Positions 11,407 to 57,066 of a stretch of DNA of 64,000 nt are shown here, piece by piece. Under the pieces are notes generated by a model that was not told the origin of the DNA, did not search any database, and worked only from the letters and a program-made list of their open reading frames with translations. The position numbers and the translations under genes are program-made. Source of the stretch: Escherichia phage vb_EcoM-VR5. Numbering within the stretch: the first letter of the stretch is position 1; each line of letters opens with the position of its first letter. Location of the stretch: the sequence record NC_028881.1. One strand, 5' to 3'.

Positions 11407-12021
11407 TCAGTAAGAAAGAACGGAAAGATTCCATAATGTATAATCCTGCCATCCATAAACACTCTCAATAGAGTCTACGCGTAGCGTAGTTCCCGCAGGG
11501 AACATCATCTCATCTTCATCGTTTACTAATTGTAAGTTTGTAGCGCGTGTTATTTCAGGAAATAATCCGTTGAACTCTTCAGGTGGGGCAGCACAAATCA
11601 TTTTAAAGATTGCTTCCTGGTAATCGAATGCAAAAGGTGCATCATTAATACAGAAAATATTTTTAGTTCCGTAAAAATTATATGAAGCAAAGTTACGGGC
11701 CACCTTAAAATCCTTTGAAAAGCTCATTACTCGGTCGAATTCAATTGTAGCACCAACACATCCTACCGATTCAAGGTATTTCAGCGTTTTCTTTGAAATA
11801 CCGCGATACAACTTATCAGGCACTACAGAAGTCAGATTCTTACGAATAATTTTGTTCAAAGTTTCTTGAATAGAATCCGGTTTATTTTCCATGCACTGCC
11901 ACAGGACGCTTTGTTCTTCGTCAGTAAAACGCTCATTAATTTCACCCTGAGCATTATCACGAAAATCATCACATACAATATTATCGTAGAACTCGTTCAT
12001 TTTATAAGTGGTGTATAACAT
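11407..12021 (-). CDS. modA: ADP-ribosyltransferase, ModA-like
   Basis: 204-aa ORF; R-S-ExE motifs (LYRGI, SFS, EDE); tandem paralog of next gene; RBS GAGGAG. Confidence 0.7.
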   Translation of the reverse strand: MLYTTYKMNEFYDNIVCDDFRDNAQGEINERFTDEEQSVLWQCMENKPDSIQETLNKIIRKNLTSVVPDKLYRGISKKTLKYLESVGCVGATIEFDRVMSFSKDFKVARNFASYNFYGTKNIFCINDAPFAFDYQEAIFKMICAAPPEEFNGLFPEITRATNLQLVNDEDEMMFPAGTTLRVDSIESVYGWQDYTLWNLSVLSY

Positions 12022-12034
12022 ATTATTCTCCTCA

Positions 12035-12076
12035 GTTGATAGAAAGATAGTAACACGAGCCTCCTTTCTCGTAAAC
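12035..12076 (-). promoter_or_regulatory. early promoter family member upstream of modA
   Basis: GTTTAC...TTACTATCTTTCTATCAAC. Confidence 0.5.
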
Positions 12077-12645
12077 TAAAAATCCAACATTTTTAAATGA
12101 ATTGTTTTGTACTCGATTTCGTATGGGTCTCTTTTGATAGTTTCGATTTCTACAATCTCGAACCGTGATAGACTAGAGACCATGAATTCACATTCAGTTT
12201 CAACCATATCATAGAGGTCAATACGGGTTTCATCTATTTCAAGCCCATCCACGTTCCCTGCAAGAACAAGGTCAATAGCGTGATTATAGTAGTCAAAAAT
12301 GAAAGGTGCATTCCTGAGACTTAAGATGGTTTTGGTCCCGTACTCCCAAGCCCCTGCGAACTGACGAGCTTGGGAATATTGAGTACTAAAAGAAGTGACC
12401 CGACCTGGAGACCACTGACACCCAACAGAAAGAACTTCAAGTTGTTCAAGTTCTCTAGGGGTAATCCCACGATAAAGCTCTACCGGAACTGCTGAAGTAA
12501 CATGCTTACGAACTAGTTTGTCTAGGTCGTAATGGAAGTTAGGGTCTTTTTTGGCATCTAGACATTTTTCTAAGATGGCCTGTTCTGATTTTGAGAATTT
12601 GGAATTGATTCTGTCTTGATAAAGACATTTTTGCTCGATGTTCAT
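12076..12645 (-). CDS. modB: ADP-ribosyltransferase, ModB-like
   Basis: 189-aa ORF; LYRGI, SFS, ETECE motifs; RBS GGAGG. Confidence 0.7.
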   Translation of the reverse strand: MNIEQKCLYQDRINSKFSKSEQAILEKCLDAKKDPNFHYDLDKLVRKHVTSAVPVELYRGITPRELEQLEVLSVGCQWSPGRVTSFSTQYSQARQFAGAWEYGTKTILSLRNAPFIFDYYNHAIDLVLAGNVDGLEIDETRIDLYDMVETECEFMVSSLSRFEIVEIETIKRDPYEIEYKTIHLKMLDF

Positions 12646-17735: not shown

Positions 17736-18182
17736 TCAACCTCGGTTCATAAAGGCATTAAAAATCTGGTCGTCAATTGAATAAACTGGAGCTTCAAGAA
17801 TTTTCAAAAGACTGTTTTTGATGTACTTGCTAGGGATACCCATATTAACGACATCATTATTCAATTTATTGTCTGGATTGATGTCTTTAAATTCAAACCC
17901 TTCAAACTCAACCTTGTCAGGAATACCATCAGCGAAAAAATAAACCAATTGATGCATTGTATTGCATGAAAATAATTTAGACCTCACTGCAATAAGTTCT
18001 TGCCAGTGGTTTAATTCTCTATTAAGAAGTTTATGAGCAAATACAATCCTATCATCGCTATCAACAATAAAATAGCCTAGGTATTGATGGTCGTCGCTCC
18101 AATACATCCTGTATGCCTGGGCATTTGGATTTTTACAACGAAGCTTTTTAATAATCAAAGTTCTGTTAATCATTTTATTCAC
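17736..18182 (-). CDS. hypothetical protein (148 aa)
   Basis: ORF. Confidence 0.6.
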   Translation of the reverse strand: MNKMINRTLIIKKLRCKNPNAQAYRMYWSDDHQYLGYFIVDSDDRIVFAHKLLNRELNHWQELIAVRSKLFSCNTMHQLVYFFADGIPDKVEFEGFEFKDINPDNKLNNDVVNMGIPSKYIKNSLLKILEAPVYSIDDQIFNAFMNRG

Positions 18183-52951: not shown

Positions 52952-53230
52952 TTATAGCTTTTTAAGCTTACTACAATAAGCATAAAATACATCGTTAAAA
53001 TTTTCAGAAACCCATCCACGCTGTATAGGCGAAGTAATTGAAAGCAGATAATGTGCTTTAATTAGCTCCATCCCATTTTTATTAGGGCATTCTTTATTAT
53101 TAGCATTATACGTCGCTGCTACAACCTCTATCTCTCTTTTGTAAGCCGTATCATCCATGATAGGCAAAAGAACAATATAAGAAATAGCCACAGCTACCGC
53201 TAGAATTAAAATCTTTGAATTTAGGCCCAT
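52952..53230 (-). CDS. membrane-anchored protein in the position of T4 rI
   Basis: 92-aa ORF with N-terminal hydrophobic anchor, adjacent to tk. Confidence 0.45.
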   Translation of the reverse strand: MGLNSKILILAVAVAISYIVLLPIMDDTAYKREIEVVAATYNANNKECPNKNGMELIKAHYLLSITSPIQRGWVSENFNDVFYAYCSKLKKL

Positions 53231-53237
53231 AGTACCC

Positions 53238-53810
53238 TCAACTCGTTATTTCTATCCAATGCTTCCTGCATAATGACACGTAAGAATCGTTGCCACCTAT
53301 AGAAACTTGGTCGCCATCCTTAATTGCGATACCATTTTGGATACGAGCTGTCATAGTAGCCTTACGTCCACAATGGCACACACCTTTGTACTCAACGAGT
53401 TTATCTGCTGTAGCTAATAATTCAGCAGAGCCAGGAAACAGTTTACCCTGAAAATCAGTTCTTAGACCGTAACACATGACCGGTATATTATAATTATCTA
53501 CTATCTTTGCCAATTGTTTTATTTGCAAAGGTTCTAAGAACTGTGCTTCATCCACAAATACGCAGTGGATATCTTTTTGAGATTCAGCCCAACGATAGAA
53601 CTCGTATAGGTCCATGTCTGGAGTCACTGCATTAGCCTCTTGGCTAATCCCTATACGAGACGAAATTCTATGGCTTGATTCTCTATTATCTATCGCAGGC
53701 TTTAAAAGGAGTACACCCATACCACGTTCTTTATAGTTATGGGCAGCCGTTAGCAATGAAGAGGTCTTCCCAGAATTCATCGCCGCATAGTGAAACATCA
53801 AACTTGCCAT
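53238..53810 (-). CDS. tk: thymidine kinase
   Basis: 190-aa ORF; P-loop AAMNSGKTS; C-terminal Cys cluster. Confidence 0.88.
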   Translation of the reverse strand: MASLMFHYAAMNSGKTSSLLTAAHNYKERGMGVLLLKPAIDNRESSHRISSRIGISQEANAVTPDMDLYEFYRWAESQKDIHCVFVDEAQFLEPLQIKQLAKIVDNYNIPVMCYGLRTDFQGKLFPGSAELLATADKLVEYKGVCHCGRKATMTARIQNGIAIKDGDQVSIGGNDSYVSLCRKHWIEITS

Positions 53811-54535
53811 TTAGATACAATTCCTCTATAAGAACAATCGGGATAACCTTTACTCAAGGCTATCTTTTTAAACATATACGCCGAGGGTTTATTAGATTCT
53901 TCCCATAGTATTTTCAATTCATCATAATATTTCCAAGTCTCATTTCTAATAGGAGAAGGTTTTCCTTTCATTGCGCCCTGTTTACCAAACATAGGATTCT
54001 TTTCACCCTTTTTAGAATCGCTCATGTTTTTAATAGTAGCACATGAATGCTTAAAGCCTTTTAATTTTTTAGAAGCGAGACCTATTTTAGCCTTATGTTC
54101 ATCCGTAAATCCTATTCTATTCGAATAGTGGTTTGCGCCTTTATTAGAAGTGGTATATTTAGAAGCTTCTATTCTCGCAGCACTCCATTTAACTCCTTTT
54201 TTGGACCTGGACATTTTACATTTAGTTAGCAATGATAACTTAGTTCCTTTCTTTTTGCCGCGTCCGCCATCGGCAAAATTTAAAGAATGCTTTCCATATT
54301 TTAATTTAGCTTTTTCTACTAAAGGAACTTCAGCATCGTAAGCTTCATCTTCAGTTTCAAAGAATTTTAATATACGGGTTTTATAAGGGTGCTTTTTGCA
54401 AATATTTTTAACAACAGTGCCACTTCCAAAATACCCATCAGAAAGATTATCAGTAGAATGTTTTCCTACGTAATAATATTTTGCCTTGAGGGTTTTTATT
54501 ACAGTTAAATAATTATAATGGAATTCCTTTACCAT
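53798..54535 (-). CDS. GIY-YIG homing endonuclease (Seg-like) with NUMOD-type C-terminal domain
   Basis: YYYVGKHS...GYFGSG N-terminal motif; C-terminus similar to HNH endonuclease at 15188-15844; RBS AAGAAGG. Confidence 0.75.
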   Translation of the reverse strand: MVKEFHYNYLTVIKTLKAKYYYVGKHSTDNLSDGYFGSGTVVKNICKKHPYKTRILKFFETEDEAYDAEVPLVEKAKLKYGKHSLNFADGGRGKKKGTKLSLLTKCKMSRSKKGVKWSAARIEASKYTTSNKGANHYSNRIGFTDEHKAKIGLASKKLKGFKHSCATIKNMSDSKKGEKNPMFGKQGAMKGKPSPIRNETWKYYDELKILWEESNKPSAYMFKKIALSKGYPDCSYRGIVSKWQV

Positions 54536-54544
54536 ATTACCTTC

Positions 54545-54727
54545 TTAAAGCGTATTCACGTAAGCAATTAATTCGTTTTCTTTCTCATCAAACTGTTCGG
54601 CGATTTTTTCGTAATCTTCAGCACTCACAGGACCCCATTCATCGTATGATTGCATTCCAGAATTCTCTTCTAGAAGCTCATGGATAAGCTCAAACAATTT
54701 ATCTTTTTGTTCTTTACTTAGGCTCAT
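54545..54727 (-). CDS. hypothetical acidic protein (60 aa)
   Basis: ORF. Confidence 0.45.
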   Translation of the reverse strand: MSLSKEQKDKLFELIHELLEENSGMQSYDEWGPVSAEDYEKIAEQFDEKENELIAYVNTL

Positions 54728-55169
54728 AATCTACCACCACTAAATTAATATCAGGAGTAAACAAATTAATCAATTGATAAACCTTGTCCCAATCACCGCC
54801 AGCAATACCACAGCCAATGCGAGGAATATAAATTCTCGGTTTAAACAAAAGACCCTTTGCAGTACGGTTTAATTCTATCATACAGTTTACTAAAGCACCA
54901 TAATCAAGATTAGGACCTGGTTCATATTGGGTATAAAGATTATAGCAAATTTGCCCATTATTGCCTGTGGCTTGAGTAAATGTTCCAAGTTTTGCAGAAT
55001 CACCCAAATAAGTGGCTTCTCTATCAATGGCAAGAATAGGTGAATAAGCCTTAGCCAATTGACCTGCTACGCCCGAACCCATAGTATGAAAACAGTTACA
55101 CCCATGAGCAACGTTATTACCTTGAAGAAACAGGGCGACGATATCGCCCTTAATATAATCAATAATCAT
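54714..55169 (-). CDS. macro-domain-like protein (putative ADP-ribose binding/hydrolase)
   Basis: GDI...GCNCFHTMGSGVAGQLA resembles macrodomain NAAN/GGGV region; tentative. Confidence 0.5.
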   Translation of the reverse strand: MIIDYIKGDIVALFLQGNNVAHGCNCFHTMGSGVAGQLAKAYSPILAIDREATYLGDSAKLGTFTQATGNNGQICYNLYTQYEPGPNLDYGALVNCMIELNRTAKGLLFKPRIYIPRIGCGIAGGDWDKVYQLINLFTPDINLVVVDYEPK

Positions 55170-55522
55170 TTAGAGTTTAGTCCTCGGTTGTAAGAGTCAA
55201 CGAGTCTGTCTACCATAGACGCGCACATTTCTTTATACTTTTTATCAGATGGAACACATTCAGTAACGTTTAGACGTTGCTCGTATCTTTTAGAAAGAGT
55301 TTTCTCTTTCATTCGACGATGCTCGACGTCATTCTGCCCATCTTTAAAAGCAGCTGTTATTTTTGAACTGAATTCAATAACACATTCAGTATTACTTGGA
55401 TGACAATAATCTTTTGCTGTACGGGTAGCATACTCGACAATTGAATTATTGGTATCATCAACCTGTGACGCTAATACTCCCGGAGCAATCAACATAAGCG
55501 CTATAGTCATCTGTTTAATCAT
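55166..55522 (-). CDS. secreted Cys-containing protein (118 aa)
   Basis: signal peptide. Confidence 0.55.
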   Translation of the reverse strand: MIKQMTIALMLIAPGVLASQVDDTNNSIVEYATRTAKDYCHPSNTECVIEFSSKITAAFKDGQNDVEHRRMKEKTLSKRYEQRLNVTECVPSDKKYKEMCASMVDRLVDSYNRGLNSK

Positions 55523-56062
55523 TTAATATACCGCCTCAAACATCTTTTTAGATTTTAGGTAATTGGCCTTTTCTAGAACTTCCGAAGCATATTTACTACC
55601 TGCTTTGGCATTCCAGCCCGCATTATAAGAAGCAATCGCTTTTCTCAGGTCACCTTTGTGAACATTAATCCAATACGACAGTTCAATGTAGGCCCAAGAG
55701 GCACTGTTCTGTCGGTTTTGGACCATACGAATTATTTCTTTATCCGACATCTTCCAACCTACCTGTTTAACACGACTTCTTAACGTAGGCAAGTAATTTT
55801 GGAACATGCCATAAGCATGGTGCTTATCTTTATTTAAACCTTGATTAATCCCAGCAGATGATTCCTGCCATAATAATCCGGCCATTATATATCCTAATCC
55901 TTTTTGATTAGGGGTTTCTTTGAACTTTCCCGACTTTTGGTATTGTTCACCGAAAGCATACGCGTAATGTAAATTATCGAGTTGTTCATTACTGAAAGTA
56001 GGCTCTACGCTATAGGCAGACATACTAACTGTCAATAGTAAAGTGGCTAATACTTTTTTCAT
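55523..56062 (-). CDS. periplasmic lytic transglycosylase (SLT domain)
   Basis: signal peptide; LWQESS, GMFQ, YNAG motifs. Confidence 0.65.
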   Translation of the reverse strand: MKKVLATLLLTVSMSAYSVEPTFSNEQLDNLHYAYAFGEQYQKSGKFKETPNQKGLGYIMAGLLWQESSAGINQGLNKDKHHAYGMFQNYLPTLRSRVKQVGWKMSDKEIIRMVQNRQNSASWAYIELSYWINVHKGDLRKAIASYNAGWNAKAGSKYASEVLEKANYLKSKKMFEAVY

Positions 56063-56074
56063 GAGACCTCATTA

Positions 56075-56533
56075 TTAAAGATAGATTACTTTCGTGCTAG
56101 TTTTACCTTCTAAACGTTTAGAGTTAACAAATGCCATACGACATTTTAATGAATATCCTTTATCAGGATGTTTACGATCTACAGTCATACCTAACCATAA
56201 GGTTTTATCGGTAATCTCGAGACGCAGTGGACGATACACTTTACCTGGGACAATTTCAGATTCTACATCAGGCAGAGGTTCCTGGATTAAAAATTCATGG
56301 ATTTCTTTAACATGGTTATGGAGTTGCTTGAATAAAGCAAAAACGTATTTTTCGTCAATTTCACGTTGGATAGCACGGTCCAATAGGTGATTAGAGTACT
56401 TAATAAAGAAAGCTGGGACTCCACTCTTAATGGCGGCTTTTTTGATGGATGTATTCAGTTCACGAAATTCGGTTTCGAACTGACGACGTAATTTGTTGCG
56501 GCGGATGAATACTTCTGAATTAATTTCTGACAT
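56075..56533 (-). CDS. regB: endoribonuclease RegB-like
   Basis: 152-aa ORF; N-terminus EVFIRRNKLRR resembles recalled T4 RegB; position relative to denV. Confidence 0.6.
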   Translation of the reverse strand: MSEINSEVFIRRNKLRRQFETEFRELNTSIKKAAIKSGVPAFFIKYSNHLLDRAIQREIDEKYVFALFKQLHNHVKEIHEFLIQEPLPDVESEIVPGKVYRPLRLEITDKTLWLGMTVDRKHPDKGYSLKCRMAFVNSKRLEGKTSTKVIYL

Positions 56534-56548
56534 TTTGTTTCTCCTGTA

Positions 56549-56589
56549 GTTGATAGGTTTATAGTATCATGCCTACAGGAGATGTAAAC
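56549..56589 (-). promoter_or_regulatory. early promoter family member with SD/anti-SD inverted repeat (upstream of regB)
   Basis: tctcctgtag / ctacaggaga flanking TGATACTATAAACCTATCAAC. Confidence 0.55.
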
Positions 56590-56593
56590 TGCT

Positions 56594-56803
56594 TTATTCT
56601 TGGAATGGTGTGAGTTTTCCAGCTATCGAACAAATTTCTACCATTGCAGGATAAAACTCTTTCACTTGTTCAAGGCGCTGGACAGCGTACCGCATTTCGC
56701 CTTCTTCAAGACAAGCCACTTGGTCATCGAGCAAATATTTGTGGTAACCAGTACAGGCTTCACTAATGATACGTTGGAATTCTTGCAAACTTTCAATTTT
56801 CAC
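56594..56803 (-). CDS. hypothetical protein (69 aa)
   Basis: ORF. Confidence 0.5.
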   Translation of the reverse strand: MKIESLQEFQRIISEACTGYHKYLLDDQVACLEEGEMRYAVQRLEQVKEFYPAMVEICSIAGKLTPFQE

Positions 56804-57066
56804 TAGTATTTTTCCTCAGGTCGAAATACTGCACGACATGCCCACATGCTGGCTTCTTTTAGATGTTGCTTAGCATACTTAAGAGCCTGCACTGCATCCA
56901 TATCTTCTTTGGTTTGTTGCTCGGTTTCATTTTCTTTAAAGATATATGCTTCTTCAATCAGAGCATCAAACATCAATCCAAGACGGACTTCTGCATCTTT
57001 AATAGCGTTCACTTTACCGATTTTATCGTCGGTATGTGGCTTGTAACCTTTGATATCTTCAATCAT
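56803..57066 (-). CDS. hypothetical protein (87 aa)
   Basis: ORF. Confidence 0.5.
   Translation of the reverse strand: MIEDIKGYKPHTDDKIGKVNAIKDAEVRLGLMFDALIEEAYIFKENETEQQTKEDMDAVQALKYAKQHLKEASMWACRAVFRPEEKY

Follow-up and report, generated by a model that had tools for sequence, protein, structure and literature searches.

The gene at 54714..55169 of the window (the whole stretch analysed, 64,000 nucleotides from a T4-like, Dhakavirus-type phage) encodes a full-length, genuine macro-domain enzyme, for which ADP-ribose binding is predicted. Sequence and gene order make it the syntenic ortholog of tk.4 in phage T4, now renamed adfM (anti-DarT factor macrodomain). The counter-defence gene is real but already known, and the fold call made for it beforehand is correct. 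We think it likely that the product, an ALC1-like stand-alone macrodomain, erases the ADP-ribose left by DarT2 on single-stranded phage DNA, with catalysis of the SCO6735 type. The gene and its immediate surroundings are as follows.

54714..55169, minus strand: tk.4/adfM-type macrodomain gene, ATG start, 151 aa plus stop codon
55166..55185, minus strand: its translation start region, with GAGGA at 55181-55185, 11 nt upstream of the ATG, which overlaps the vs TGA (ATGA, 55166-55169)
55166..55522, minus strand: homolog of vs (valyl-tRNA synthetase modifier), immediately upstream, 45% identical to T4 Vs
54545..54727, minus strand: DUF7438 ORF of 60 aa at the position of IME08 tk.3 (Pfam DUF7438, 1.4e-16; IME08 synteny)

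The open reading frame is real: it starts with ATG, codes for 151 aa and, according to the ORF listing, contains at residues 8-39 the peptide quoted in the first-pass annotation, GDIVALFLQGNNVAHGCNCFHTMGSGVAGQLA; the strand, which that annotation did not state, is the minus strand. The product has 288 database homologs (best E 7e-93). A tblastn search with it gave matches in 2,668 phage records, 2,408 of them with at least 80% query coverage, and it matches PHROG 335 with E=1.3e-64. These homologs, records and profile match place the ORF far beyond chance.

Over its full length the protein is 53% identical to T4 Tk.4 (NP_049723, 155 aa; E=7e-64), and T4 Tk.4, searched by tblastn on the window, gave this ORF as its single match. 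Similarity thus spans the full length in both search directions and the position is conserved, as expected for a member of the PHROG 335/Tk.4 group. The gene order tk...tk.4-vs-vs.1-regB is identical in the window, in IME08 and in T4, with the vs homolog at the equal position in the latter two. Both T4 Tk.4 and the window protein belong to PHROG 335 and carry the motifs AHGCNCFHTMGSGVAGQL, NLYTQ and PRIG.GI. They differ at 47% of residues, in the phosphate loop (GCGIAGGDW in the window protein, GAGIGKGNW in T4 Tk.4) and by a 3-residue deletion in a beta-hairpin near residue 66; downstream, the window phage has a NUMOD3 homing endonuclease in place of T4 tk.1/tk.2. As identity is just 53%, the specificity of the window protein could differ from that of T4 Tk.4.

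The function of the T4 gene is known from genetics. T4 lacking both adfA and adfN is still resistant to DarTG2, from which the existence of another factor was predicted (PMC11825919). A transposon screen of T4 on hosts with DarTG2 gave tk.4 as its only significant hit (preprint 10.1101/2025.11.20.689424), and a clean tk.4 knockout sensitised T4 to DarTG2, whereupon the gene was renamed adfM (same preprint, 2025). Our literature search for enzymology of T4 Tk.4 found none, the T4 evidence being genetic and from this preprint. Of the two functions put forward in the first-pass annotation, counter-defence is supported by the deletion phenotype of the T4 ortholog, whereas pairing with modA/modB as writer and eraser is not supported, on account of distance, distribution and linkage chemistry, as set out below.

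The ATGA overlap with vs indicates co-transcription, and probable translational coupling, of the two genes. On the other side, the DUF7438 ORF and the macrodomain gene share 14 nt at the 3′ end of the latter; T4 Tk.3 gave no tblastn match in the window. A promoter scan returned 15 promoter-like sites, where 15.2 are expected from shuffled sequence. None of them lies on the coding strand from tk.4 up to 56561-56588, where a 9/12 match with a TG extension is found upstream of regB. A dedicated promoter or terminator for the macrodomain gene was considered and rejected, consensus matches not being above those in shuffled sequence (15 versus 15.2 and 4 versus 3.0, respectively). A hairpin at 55132-55150 lies inside codons 7-13 of the gene and is probably there by chance. 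The window contains no second macrodomain and no paralog, and it lacks an intact T4-type gp61.2, of which only a 14-residue C-terminal remnant is present. In T2-infected cells, the Tk.4 protein was detected in the proteome (10.64898/2026.06.19.733364).

The macro-domain fold, proposed tentatively in the first-pass annotation, is borne out by profile and structure prediction. Pfam Macro (PF01661) scores 30.1 bits for a gathering cutoff of 22 (E=5.1e-7), and the AlphaFold2 model has a pLDDT of 95.7 and a pTM of 0.90. Searched with this model, Foldseek returned macro-domain relatives from the PDB: TARG1 (E=2e-10, TM 0.78), then Poa1p, BT1257 and the M. tuberculosis and T. aquaticus DarG, with TARG1 and yeast Poa1p, both of about the size of the window protein, as the top matches (TM 0.78-0.81). 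The model is a three-layer alpha/beta/alpha fold built on a mixed central sheet of six strands, as is typical of the Macro superfamily, and the Gly-rich ADP-ribose and phosphate loops are present as MGSGVAG (30-36) and IGCGIAGG (118-125). The first-pass annotation noted a likeness to the N-terminal, nucleotide-binding region of macro domains. The likeness extends further: residues 22-133 cover positions 2-117 of the 118 in the Pfam profile, and 135-143 of the 151 residues could be aligned in fold comparisons. We concluded that the protein stands alone as a single macrodomain and belongs to the ALC1-like class of TARG1, DarG and SCO6735.

Four segments carry the active-site and loop residues. 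Q81 was placed by alignment A2 with residue mapping, and by profile alignment to TARG1.

55095..55106, minus strand: codons H22-G23-C24-N25, aligned with SCO6735 H24-V25-C26-N27 (residue mapping of alignment A2)
55062..55082, minus strand: codons M30-G-S-G-V-A-G36, forming the Gly-rich loop that follows strand 2 (the macro-domain GxG motif for ADP-ribose binding)
54927..54941, minus strand: codons N77-L-Y-T-Q81, with Q81 in the column of SCO6735 Q85, DarG K80 and TARG1 K84
54789..54824, minus strand: codons P116-R-I-G-C-G-I-A-G-G-D-W127, the phosphate-binding loop, with G121 equivalent to SCO6735 G128 and A123 in the column of TARG1 D125

Conservation in these segments is high. H22, G23 and N25 are invariant in 57 of 57 homologs, as are N77, Y79, T80 and Q81. 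In the Gly-rich loop, whose GxG motif is part of the macro-domain ADP-ribose cleft (PMC9503650), G33 and A35 do not vary, and conservation of M30 and G31 is at least 90%; in the phosphate-binding loop, P116, I118, G119, G121 and G125 are invariant among the 57. Residue mapping pairs the invariant H22, G23, N25, Q81, G119 and G121 with SCO6735 H24, V25, N27, Q85, G126 and G128. In SCO6735, the catalytic Gln is locked by N27, while the backbone of V25 is proposed to hold the catalytic water; activity is almost lost in the N27S mutant, absent in Q85A and Q85E, and reduced in G128E (PMC9411070). Mutation of the position equivalent to N25 in PhiKZ AdfM (N23A) also lowers activity (PMC13309987). The window protein has a Gln at the DarG K80/TARG1 K84 position together with the locking Asn (Q81, N25), as SCO6735-type hydrolases do. 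By alignment, the active site is thus of the SCO6735/BT1257 glutamine type, Q81 replacing the catalytic Lys of DarG and TARG1.

SCO6735 and BT1257, orphan ALC1-like proteins of Streptomyces coelicolor and Bacteroides, were also the best sequence-profile matches in the PDB (3.5e-20 and 1.4e-17). They share the Gln-type site, with H, N, Q and Gly loops aligned, and SCO6735, like the window protein, is a stand-alone single domain with no adjoining DarT. Identity is only 26-29%, and two traits of SCO6735 are missing, a Val/Ile at the V25 position, which is described as specific to it, and the mobile loop that is long, basic and bears K89 and K94: the loop is some 5-6 residues shorter and has no aligned lysines (alignment A2). 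Because of the Gly at V25, the shorter lysine-free loop and the low identity, we take the protein to share the catalytic type of SCO6735 and to form a separate clade. The Gly is probably tolerated, since the role of V25 is mediated by the backbone. Human TARG1 (OARD1), which is similar in size and also reverses thymidine-linked ADP-ribose (PMC9411070, PMC13036486), differs in its Lys84/Asp125 catalytic dyad, which is absent here and replaced by Q81/A123.

Alternatively, the protein could be a Poa1p-like ADP-ribose-1''-phosphate phosphatase, or another processor of small ADP-ribose compounds, whose main role would be the destruction of immune signals of the host, or of toxic metabolites derived from NAD, and not DNA repair. 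RefSeq has long named the T4 tk.4 product “phosphatase, contains A1pp phosphatase motif”, and many orthologs are likewise annotated “phosphatase” or “Poa1p-like”, but this name is a transferred domain label. Iyer et al. see low-molecular-weight ADP-ribose derivatives as the main targets of phage macro domains (PMC9503650). DarTG2 sensitivity is the only tk.4 phenotype reported in the literature found. Poa1p H23 and S30, mutated in 6lfs and 6lft according to the PDB entry titles, align with H22 and T29. The T29 column is nevertheless variable in the 57 homologs (T 38, S 6, V 6, L 2, Q 2), in contrast to the invariant, SCO6735-type H22, N25 and Q81, and the family profile scores BT1257 (75.6 bits) and SCO6735 (67.1) above Poa1p (55.4). 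Since the equivalent of Poa1p Ser30 is not conserved in the phage family, we downgraded this activity and regard it as unlikely.

The comparison with DarG leads to a similar distinction. DarG models, which count in favour of the reversal of DarT2 marks, provided both the only PADLOC match (positions 3-146 of 329, E=2.5e-6) and the best NCBIfam match, NF048014, the DarG equivalog, with a score of 20.3 bits where the cutoff is 250 and a match over model positions 12-149 of 338. The DarG macrodomain (M. tuberculosis 5m3i, T. aquaticus 5m31/5m3e) has K80 in an FPTK motif where the window protein has Q81, and DarG possesses a C-terminal DarT-binding domain and an adjoining darT, neither of which is found here, the neighbours being vs and the DUF7438 ORF. 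Membership in DarG was therefore rejected: only the macrodomain part is matched, far below the NF048014 cutoff, and the catalytic Lys and an adjoining darT are absent. The protein works like the DarG macrodomain, as far as its predicted activity goes, yet is not a DarG.

The mechanism that we favour, erasure of DarT2 marks from phage DNA, would proceed as follows. Early in infection the tk-vs-regB gene cluster would supply the protein, which would bind the ADP-ribose put by host DarT2 on the N3 of thymidine within TNTC motifs when the phage DNA is single-stranded. Q81, held by N25, would position the distal ribose, and a water held by the backbone at H22/G23 would act as proton donor, unlike in DarG and TARG1, which use a lysine (K80 and K84, respectively). 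Hydrolysis of the base-ribose bond would release free ADP-ribose and make the DNA replicable again, and the DarTG2 abortive-infection defence would be neutralised. For SCO6735 itself, hydrolysis of thymidine-linked ADP-ribose on DNA has been shown, as has the rescue of cells from DarT (PMC9411070). By analogy with this enzyme, we infer hydrolase activity for the window protein, and for T4 Tk.4 as well.

Some features count against this mechanism. The protein has neither the catalytic lysine of DarG and TARG1 nor SCO6735 K89 and the loop segment bearing K94; K89 is important for activity on DNA, and the mobile loop is also said to carry K94 (PMC9411070). It is mildly acidic (pI 5.6), as opposed to SCO6735, which has a pI of 9.7 and whose DNA groove is electropositive. 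PhiKZ AdfM, however, is likewise acidic (pI 5.1) and is biochemically active. The low DarG equivalog score (20 bits for a cutoff of 250) and the missing DarT-binding C-terminal domain, mentioned above, belong to the same list.

Acidity and the lack of the basic mobile-loop lysines of SCO6735 would also fit a protein whose action against DarT2 is mainly non-catalytic: it would mimic an antitoxin or read ADP-ribose, binding and inhibiting the toxin (“interaction-inhibition”) or shielding the modified site. The dead mutants SCO6735 Q85A, DarG K80A and TARG1 K84A inhibit DarT in vitro, SCO6735 most strongly (PMC9411070), and the phage anti-DarT factors AdfA and AdfB act as direct inhibitors (PMC13309987; PMC11825919). 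The invariant H22, N25, Q81 and Gly-rich loops, however, indicate selection for catalysis, and the 151 aa comprise a macro domain only, without the dedicated DarT-binding domain of DarG. Binding and catalysis are in any case not mutually exclusive. We give a mainly non-catalytic role a low probability, a little below that of the phosphatase.

The substrate may also be questioned. Uracil-linked ADP-ribose on RNA is also removed by SCO6735, TARG1 and DarG (PMC13036486), and SCO6735 de-MARylates PARP1 E988Q (PMC9411070), so that the main target could be uracil-linked RNA ADP-ribose, or Asp/Glu-ADP-ribosylated protein, produced by another ART defence of the host, with DarT2 reversal being secondary. 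Yet no bacterial defence writing uracil-linked ADP-ribose was found in the literature search, and under the DarTG2 condition tk.4 was the single hit of the T4 screen (10.1101/2025.11.20.689424). Such a primary substrate is very unlikely in our opinion.

Both ADP-ribosyltransferase genes mentioned in the first-pass annotation were indeed located in the window, by tblastn with the annotated IME08 proteins:

11407..12021, minus strand: modA, 79% identical to IME08 ModA
12076..12645, minus strand: modB, 97% identical to IME08 ModB

Their presence in the same genome raised the idea that the macrodomain erases the ADP-ribose, or the ADP-ribose-linked RNA chains, that Alt, ModA and ModB attach to host proteins, making these marks reversible. 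SCO6735 and TARG1 do also de-modify proteins at Asp/Glu (PMC9411070), but ModA modifies arginine, Mod and Alt being of the R-S-E ART family. Removal of Arg-linked ADP-ribose falls to DraG/ARH-type enzymes; the substrates of TARG1-like macrodomains are Asp/Glu esters, O-acetyl-ADP-ribose and ADP-ribose linked to nucleic acid (PMC8120803). Cleavage of an arginine linkage is not known for the macrodomain class of the window protein. Macrodomains specific for arginine do occur in principle (MavL, cited in PMC13036486), but the closest relatives of the window protein are not of the MavL type. Moreover, 42 kb separate the macrodomain gene from modA/modB, which lie in a separate gene cluster, and the phyletic distributions disagree: tblastn places Tk.4 homologs in about 2,670 phage records, among them phages of Pseudomonas (179), Vibrio (129), Acinetobacter (93), Aeromonas (86) and also Salmonella, against about 1,070 for ModB, almost all from enterobacterial T4-likes. 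On distribution and genome positions, a pair with modA/modB was rejected as the primary explanation, and we hold erasure of the phage's own marks to be the least probable of the roles considered. On present evidence the macrodomain and modA/modB are not functionally linked, and the writer whose marks are erased is most likely host DarT2, not the phage's own enzymes. There is a slim chance, comparable to that given to the RNA or protein substrates, that the Gln-type Tk.4 is a broad eraser, acting on DarT2 marks and in addition on Alt/ModA/ModB marks (ModB RNA chains included) or on uracil-linked RNA ADP-ribose; if so, T4-like phages would own a writer/eraser circuit timing host takeover.

A further phage protein for comparison is PhiKZ gp104, also called AdfM, from a chimallivirus, for which removal of thymidine-linked ADP-ribose from DNA was shown biochemically (PMC13309987). 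Both proteins are stand-alone and phage-encoded, and have in common the fold class and the proposed anti-DarTG2 role. PhiKZ gp104 is however DarG-like, being 35% identical to M. tuberculosis DarG with the FPTK lysine, and it is not orthologous to the window protein: BLASTP between the two is marginal (E=0.006 over 40 residues), and an HMM of the Tk.4 family scores gp104 at 33.8 bits compared to 73.6 for BT1257. From these sequence relationships, the name AdfM covers two non-orthologous branches, a T4-type one that is SCO6735-like with Gln and a PhiKZ-type one that is DarG-like with Lys, a point slightly beyond the published literature found. Recruitment by the two phage lineages appears to have drawn on different branches of one macrodomain class. 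Because the branches are non-orthologous and differ in their Lys and Gln sites, the biochemistry of PhiKZ gp104 is not simply transferable to the T4-type proteins.

The gene joins a layered anti-DarTG arsenal of T-even-type phages, in which DarTG1 is countered by AdfA and AdfN, and DarTG2 by Tk.4/AdfM. Host range on Enterobacteria carrying DarTG2 is affected, and the gene is therefore relevant to the choice of therapeutic phages.

The macrodomain gene was found among the following features, listed by coordinates in the window.

53238..53810, thymidine kinase gene tk (Pfam)
53798..54535, minus strand, NUMOD3 homing endonuclease ORF, 245 aa (Pfam)
54545..54727, DUF7438 ORF at the position of IME08 tk.3 (Pfam)
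54714..55169, minus strand, macrodomain gene of the tk.4/adfM type, ATG-initiated ORF, 151 aa
55166..55522, minus strand, vs, valyl-tRNA synthetase modifier homolog (45% identity to T4 Vs)
56075..56533, RegB gene (Pfam)

The peptide quoted in the first-pass annotation corresponds to residues 8-39 of the 151-aa product. This ORF is no chance reading frame, as its product has 288 homologs in a large protein collection (best E=7e-93), matches 2,668 phage records by tblastn, and also matches PHROG 335 (E=1.3e-64). The gene is part of a tightly packed, co-directional cluster, since it overlaps both neighbouring ORFs: its 3′ end shares 14 nt with the next ORF, and its ATG, 11 nt downstream of a GAGGA, overlaps the vs stop codon TGA (ATGA, 55166-55169). 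Translational coupling of the two genes through the ATGA is predicted. A consensus scan of the macrodomain gene region found promoter- or terminator-like sites no commoner than in shuffled sequence. A perfect GC-rich hairpin of 8 bp with a T-rich tract after it (AGGGCGATATCGTCGCCCT GTTTCTTCAA; 55132..55150, minus strand), inside codons 7-16 of the gene, is therefore probably due to chance.

Among the neighbours, the vs ORF had no Pfam match and begins with an apparent signal-like hydrophobic segment, and vs.1 gave a weak SLT-like Pfam match. The NUMOD3 ORF lies between tk and the DUF7438 ORF, at the place of T4 tk.1/tk.2 and IME08 tk.2. It looks like a mobile insertion, because an endonuclease is present there in only some of the relatives (IME540, NC-G, ABTNLS3).

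By megablast, positions 53000-57000 match T4-like phages (Straboviridae, Tevenvirinae), the closest being Escherichia phage ESCO10 (98.6%) and the Dhakavirus group around IME08. The IME08 counterpart is named tk.4, in the order tk, tk.2, tk.3, tk.4, vs, vs.1, regB; the T4 order is tk, tk.1-tk.3, tk.4, vs, vs.1, regB. Along its full length the VR5 protein is 53% identical to T4 Tk.4 (E=7e-64), its ORF is the sole T4 Tk.4 match in the window, and no paralog was found within the window. From gene order, full-length identity and this single match, we conclude that the gene is the ortholog of T4 tk.4.

The first-pass annotation had proposed a resemblance to the N-terminal region of macro domains, to be abandoned if structure prediction gave another fold. 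Pfam Macro (PF01661) matched at 30.1 bits (gathering cutoff 22), from position 2 to position 117 of the 118 in the profile. From an alignment of 57 sequences, AlphaFold2 gave a model with six strands and five helices (mean pLDDT 95.7, pTM 0.90), and in a Foldseek search of the PDB it matched TARG1 (E=2e-10, TM 0.78-0.79), Poa1p, BT1257 and the macrodomains of M. tuberculosis and T. aquaticus DarG, then coronavirus Mac1 domains. All three methods thus returned a macro fold. The restriction to an N-terminal region was not borne out: the protein is a macrodomain from end to end and belongs to the TARG1/DarG/SCO6735 ("ALC1-like") class.

The gene was already known. Macro domains were surveyed in 2022 and found in 41% of myoviruses (Iyer et al., PMC9503650), near-identical proteins (95-99%) are in public records, and RefSeq annotates T4 tk.4 as "phosphatase; contains A1pp phosphatase motif", an A1pp/macro label shared by relatives. 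Function was assigned in T4 in a preprint of November 2025 (10.1101/2025.11.20.689424): after passage of a T4 transposon library through a host expressing DarTG2, tk.4 alone was significantly depleted, and T4 with a clean knockout of it became sensitive to DarTG2. The authors gave the gene the new name adfM (anti-DarT factor macrodomain) and infer that its product removes ADP-ribose from DNA enzymatically; in the same study, vs was the most depleted gene in minimal medium. The phenotype fits the earlier observation that T4 without adfA and adfN remains DarTG2-resistant, which predicted another factor (PMC11825919). Counter-defence, suggested in the first-pass annotation, was thus the right kind of function. 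In T2-infected cells, Tk.4 protein was detected and tk.4 mRNA pairs with the sRNA ArcZ (2026 preprint, 10.64898/2026.06.19.733364), where the description "putative thymidine kinase" is an error inherited from the gene name.

DarG models were the only PADLOC match and the best NCBIfam match of the VR5 protein. They cover the macrodomain half only, at 20 bits against an equivalog cutoff of 250, so the protein is not a DarG; it is predicted to work like the DarG macrodomain. Elsewhere in the window, a 148-aa ORF (17736..18182, minus strand) occupies the position of T4 gene 61.2, whose product has 208 aa. Its final 14 residues (SIDDQIFNAFMNRG) are identical to the gp61.2 C-terminus, and tblastn found no similarity to gp61.2 in the remainder. 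This looks like a module swap with the gene's 3′ end kept. We take T4 61.2 to be adfA, an anti-DarT1 factor.

The active site was examined by scoring the phage-family profile against PDB chains. BT1257 ranked first (E=3.5e-20), followed by SCO6735 (1.4e-17), TARG1 (5e-17), Poa1p (6e-14) and DarG (about 1e-10). A role like that of Poa1p, as small-molecule phosphatase or signal degrader, is unlikely, the column equivalent to Poa1p Ser30 being variable in the phage family. Residues were mapped in a multiple alignment of the VR5 protein, T4 Tk.4, five other phage homologs, BT1257, SCO6735, TARG1 and DarG, the last represented in the common frame by the actual sequences of its 5m3i and 5m31 chains. 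Q81 (NLYTQ) falls in the column of the catalytic lysine (DarG K80, FPTK; TARG1 K84), a glutamine shared with T4 Tk.4 (Q84), BT1257 and SCO6735 (Q85), and A123 falls in that of TARG1 D125. H22, G23, N25, Q81, G119 and G121 correspond to SCO6735 H24, V25, N27, Q85, G126 and G128, and are invariant in 57/57 phage-family homologs. By this mapping, the VR5 protein has the catalytic set of the glutamine type.

SCO6735 strips thymidine-linked ADP-ribose off DNA modified by DarT, and it both rescues E. coli from this toxin and protects S. coelicolor; Q85A and Q85E are inactive, N27S almost inactive and G128E impaired (Hlousek-Kasun et al., PMC9411070). In the mechanism proposed there, the glutamine holds the distal ribose in position, and thymine is protonated by a water bound to the V25 backbone. 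As the role of V25 is backbone-mediated, the glycine found in VR5 is probably tolerated. Compared to SCO6735, the VR5 protein has a "mobile loop" that is shorter by about 5-6 residues and without K89 and K94, and it is mildly acidic (pI 5.6, against 9.7). Catalytically dead SCO6735 still inhibits DarT (PMC9411070), as a mainly non-catalytic inhibitor of DarT2 would; for the VR5 protein we judge this rather improbable. Removal of ADP-ribose from RNA or protein is very improbable as its main role.

We consider it likely that the VR5 protein hydrolyses DarT2-attached ADP-ribose on phage ssDNA. Expressed early with vs and regB, it would bind the ADP-ribose put by DarT2 on thymidine in TNTC motifs and remove it via Q81, N25 and a backbone-held water, which would restore replication. 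This reading joins the ORF, fold, orthology and residue pattern established here to findings in relatives, namely the need for T4 tk.4 against DarTG2 and the hydrolysis of thymidine-linked ADP-ribose on DNA by glutamine-type SCO6735.

The first-pass annotation had also proposed a writer/eraser pair with two ADP-ribosyltransferases, both indeed present in the window, 42 kb from the macrodomain gene.

11407..12021, modA
12076..12645, modB

The 2,668 records with Tk.4-type homologs include Escherichia (969), Klebsiella (325), Salmonella (281), Pseudomonas (179), Vibrio (129), Acinetobacter (93), Aeromonas (86) and others. For ModB homologs the tally is 1,067 records, nearly all of them from T4-likes of enterobacteria (Salmonella 30), and the last four genera named are outside their top ten. 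Alt, ModA and ModB are R-S-E type ARTs, ModA targeting Arg265 of RNA polymerase alpha. The enzymes that remove Arg-ADP-ribose are of the DraG/ARH type, and the substrates of MacroD-/TARG1-like macrodomains are Asp/Glu esters, O-acetyl-ADP-ribose and nucleic-acid-linked ADP-ribose (PMC8120803). MavL is an arginine-specific macrodomain (PMC13036486), but the relatives of the VR5 protein are of another type. Because the distributions differ, the chemistry is mismatched and the sole reported ortholog phenotype concerns host-encoded DarT2, a dedicated pair is disfavoured, and erasure of the phage's own Mod/Alt marks is the least probable role considered.

The name AdfM was also given to PhiKZ gp104, which removes DarT2's thymidine-linked ADP-ribose in vitro, the N23A mutant being impaired (2026 Cell Reports paper, PMC13309987). 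Translated from the published construct, gp104 is DarG-like, with the FPTK lysine and 35% identity to Mtb DarG. Its similarity to the VR5 protein is marginal (BLASTP E=0.006), and the Tk.4 family HMM gave it 33.8 bits, against 73.6 for BT1257. T4 Tk.4 is of the glutamine type, nearest BT1257 and SCO6735, whereas gp104 is of the lysine type. One name thus covers two non-orthologous branches of the same macrodomain class. Our literature search found direct enzymology for the PhiKZ (Lys) type and none for the T4 (Gln) type. The remaining interest is that T4-type AdfM would use an active-site glutamine rather than lysine, and that it is not orthologous to its PhiKZ namesake.
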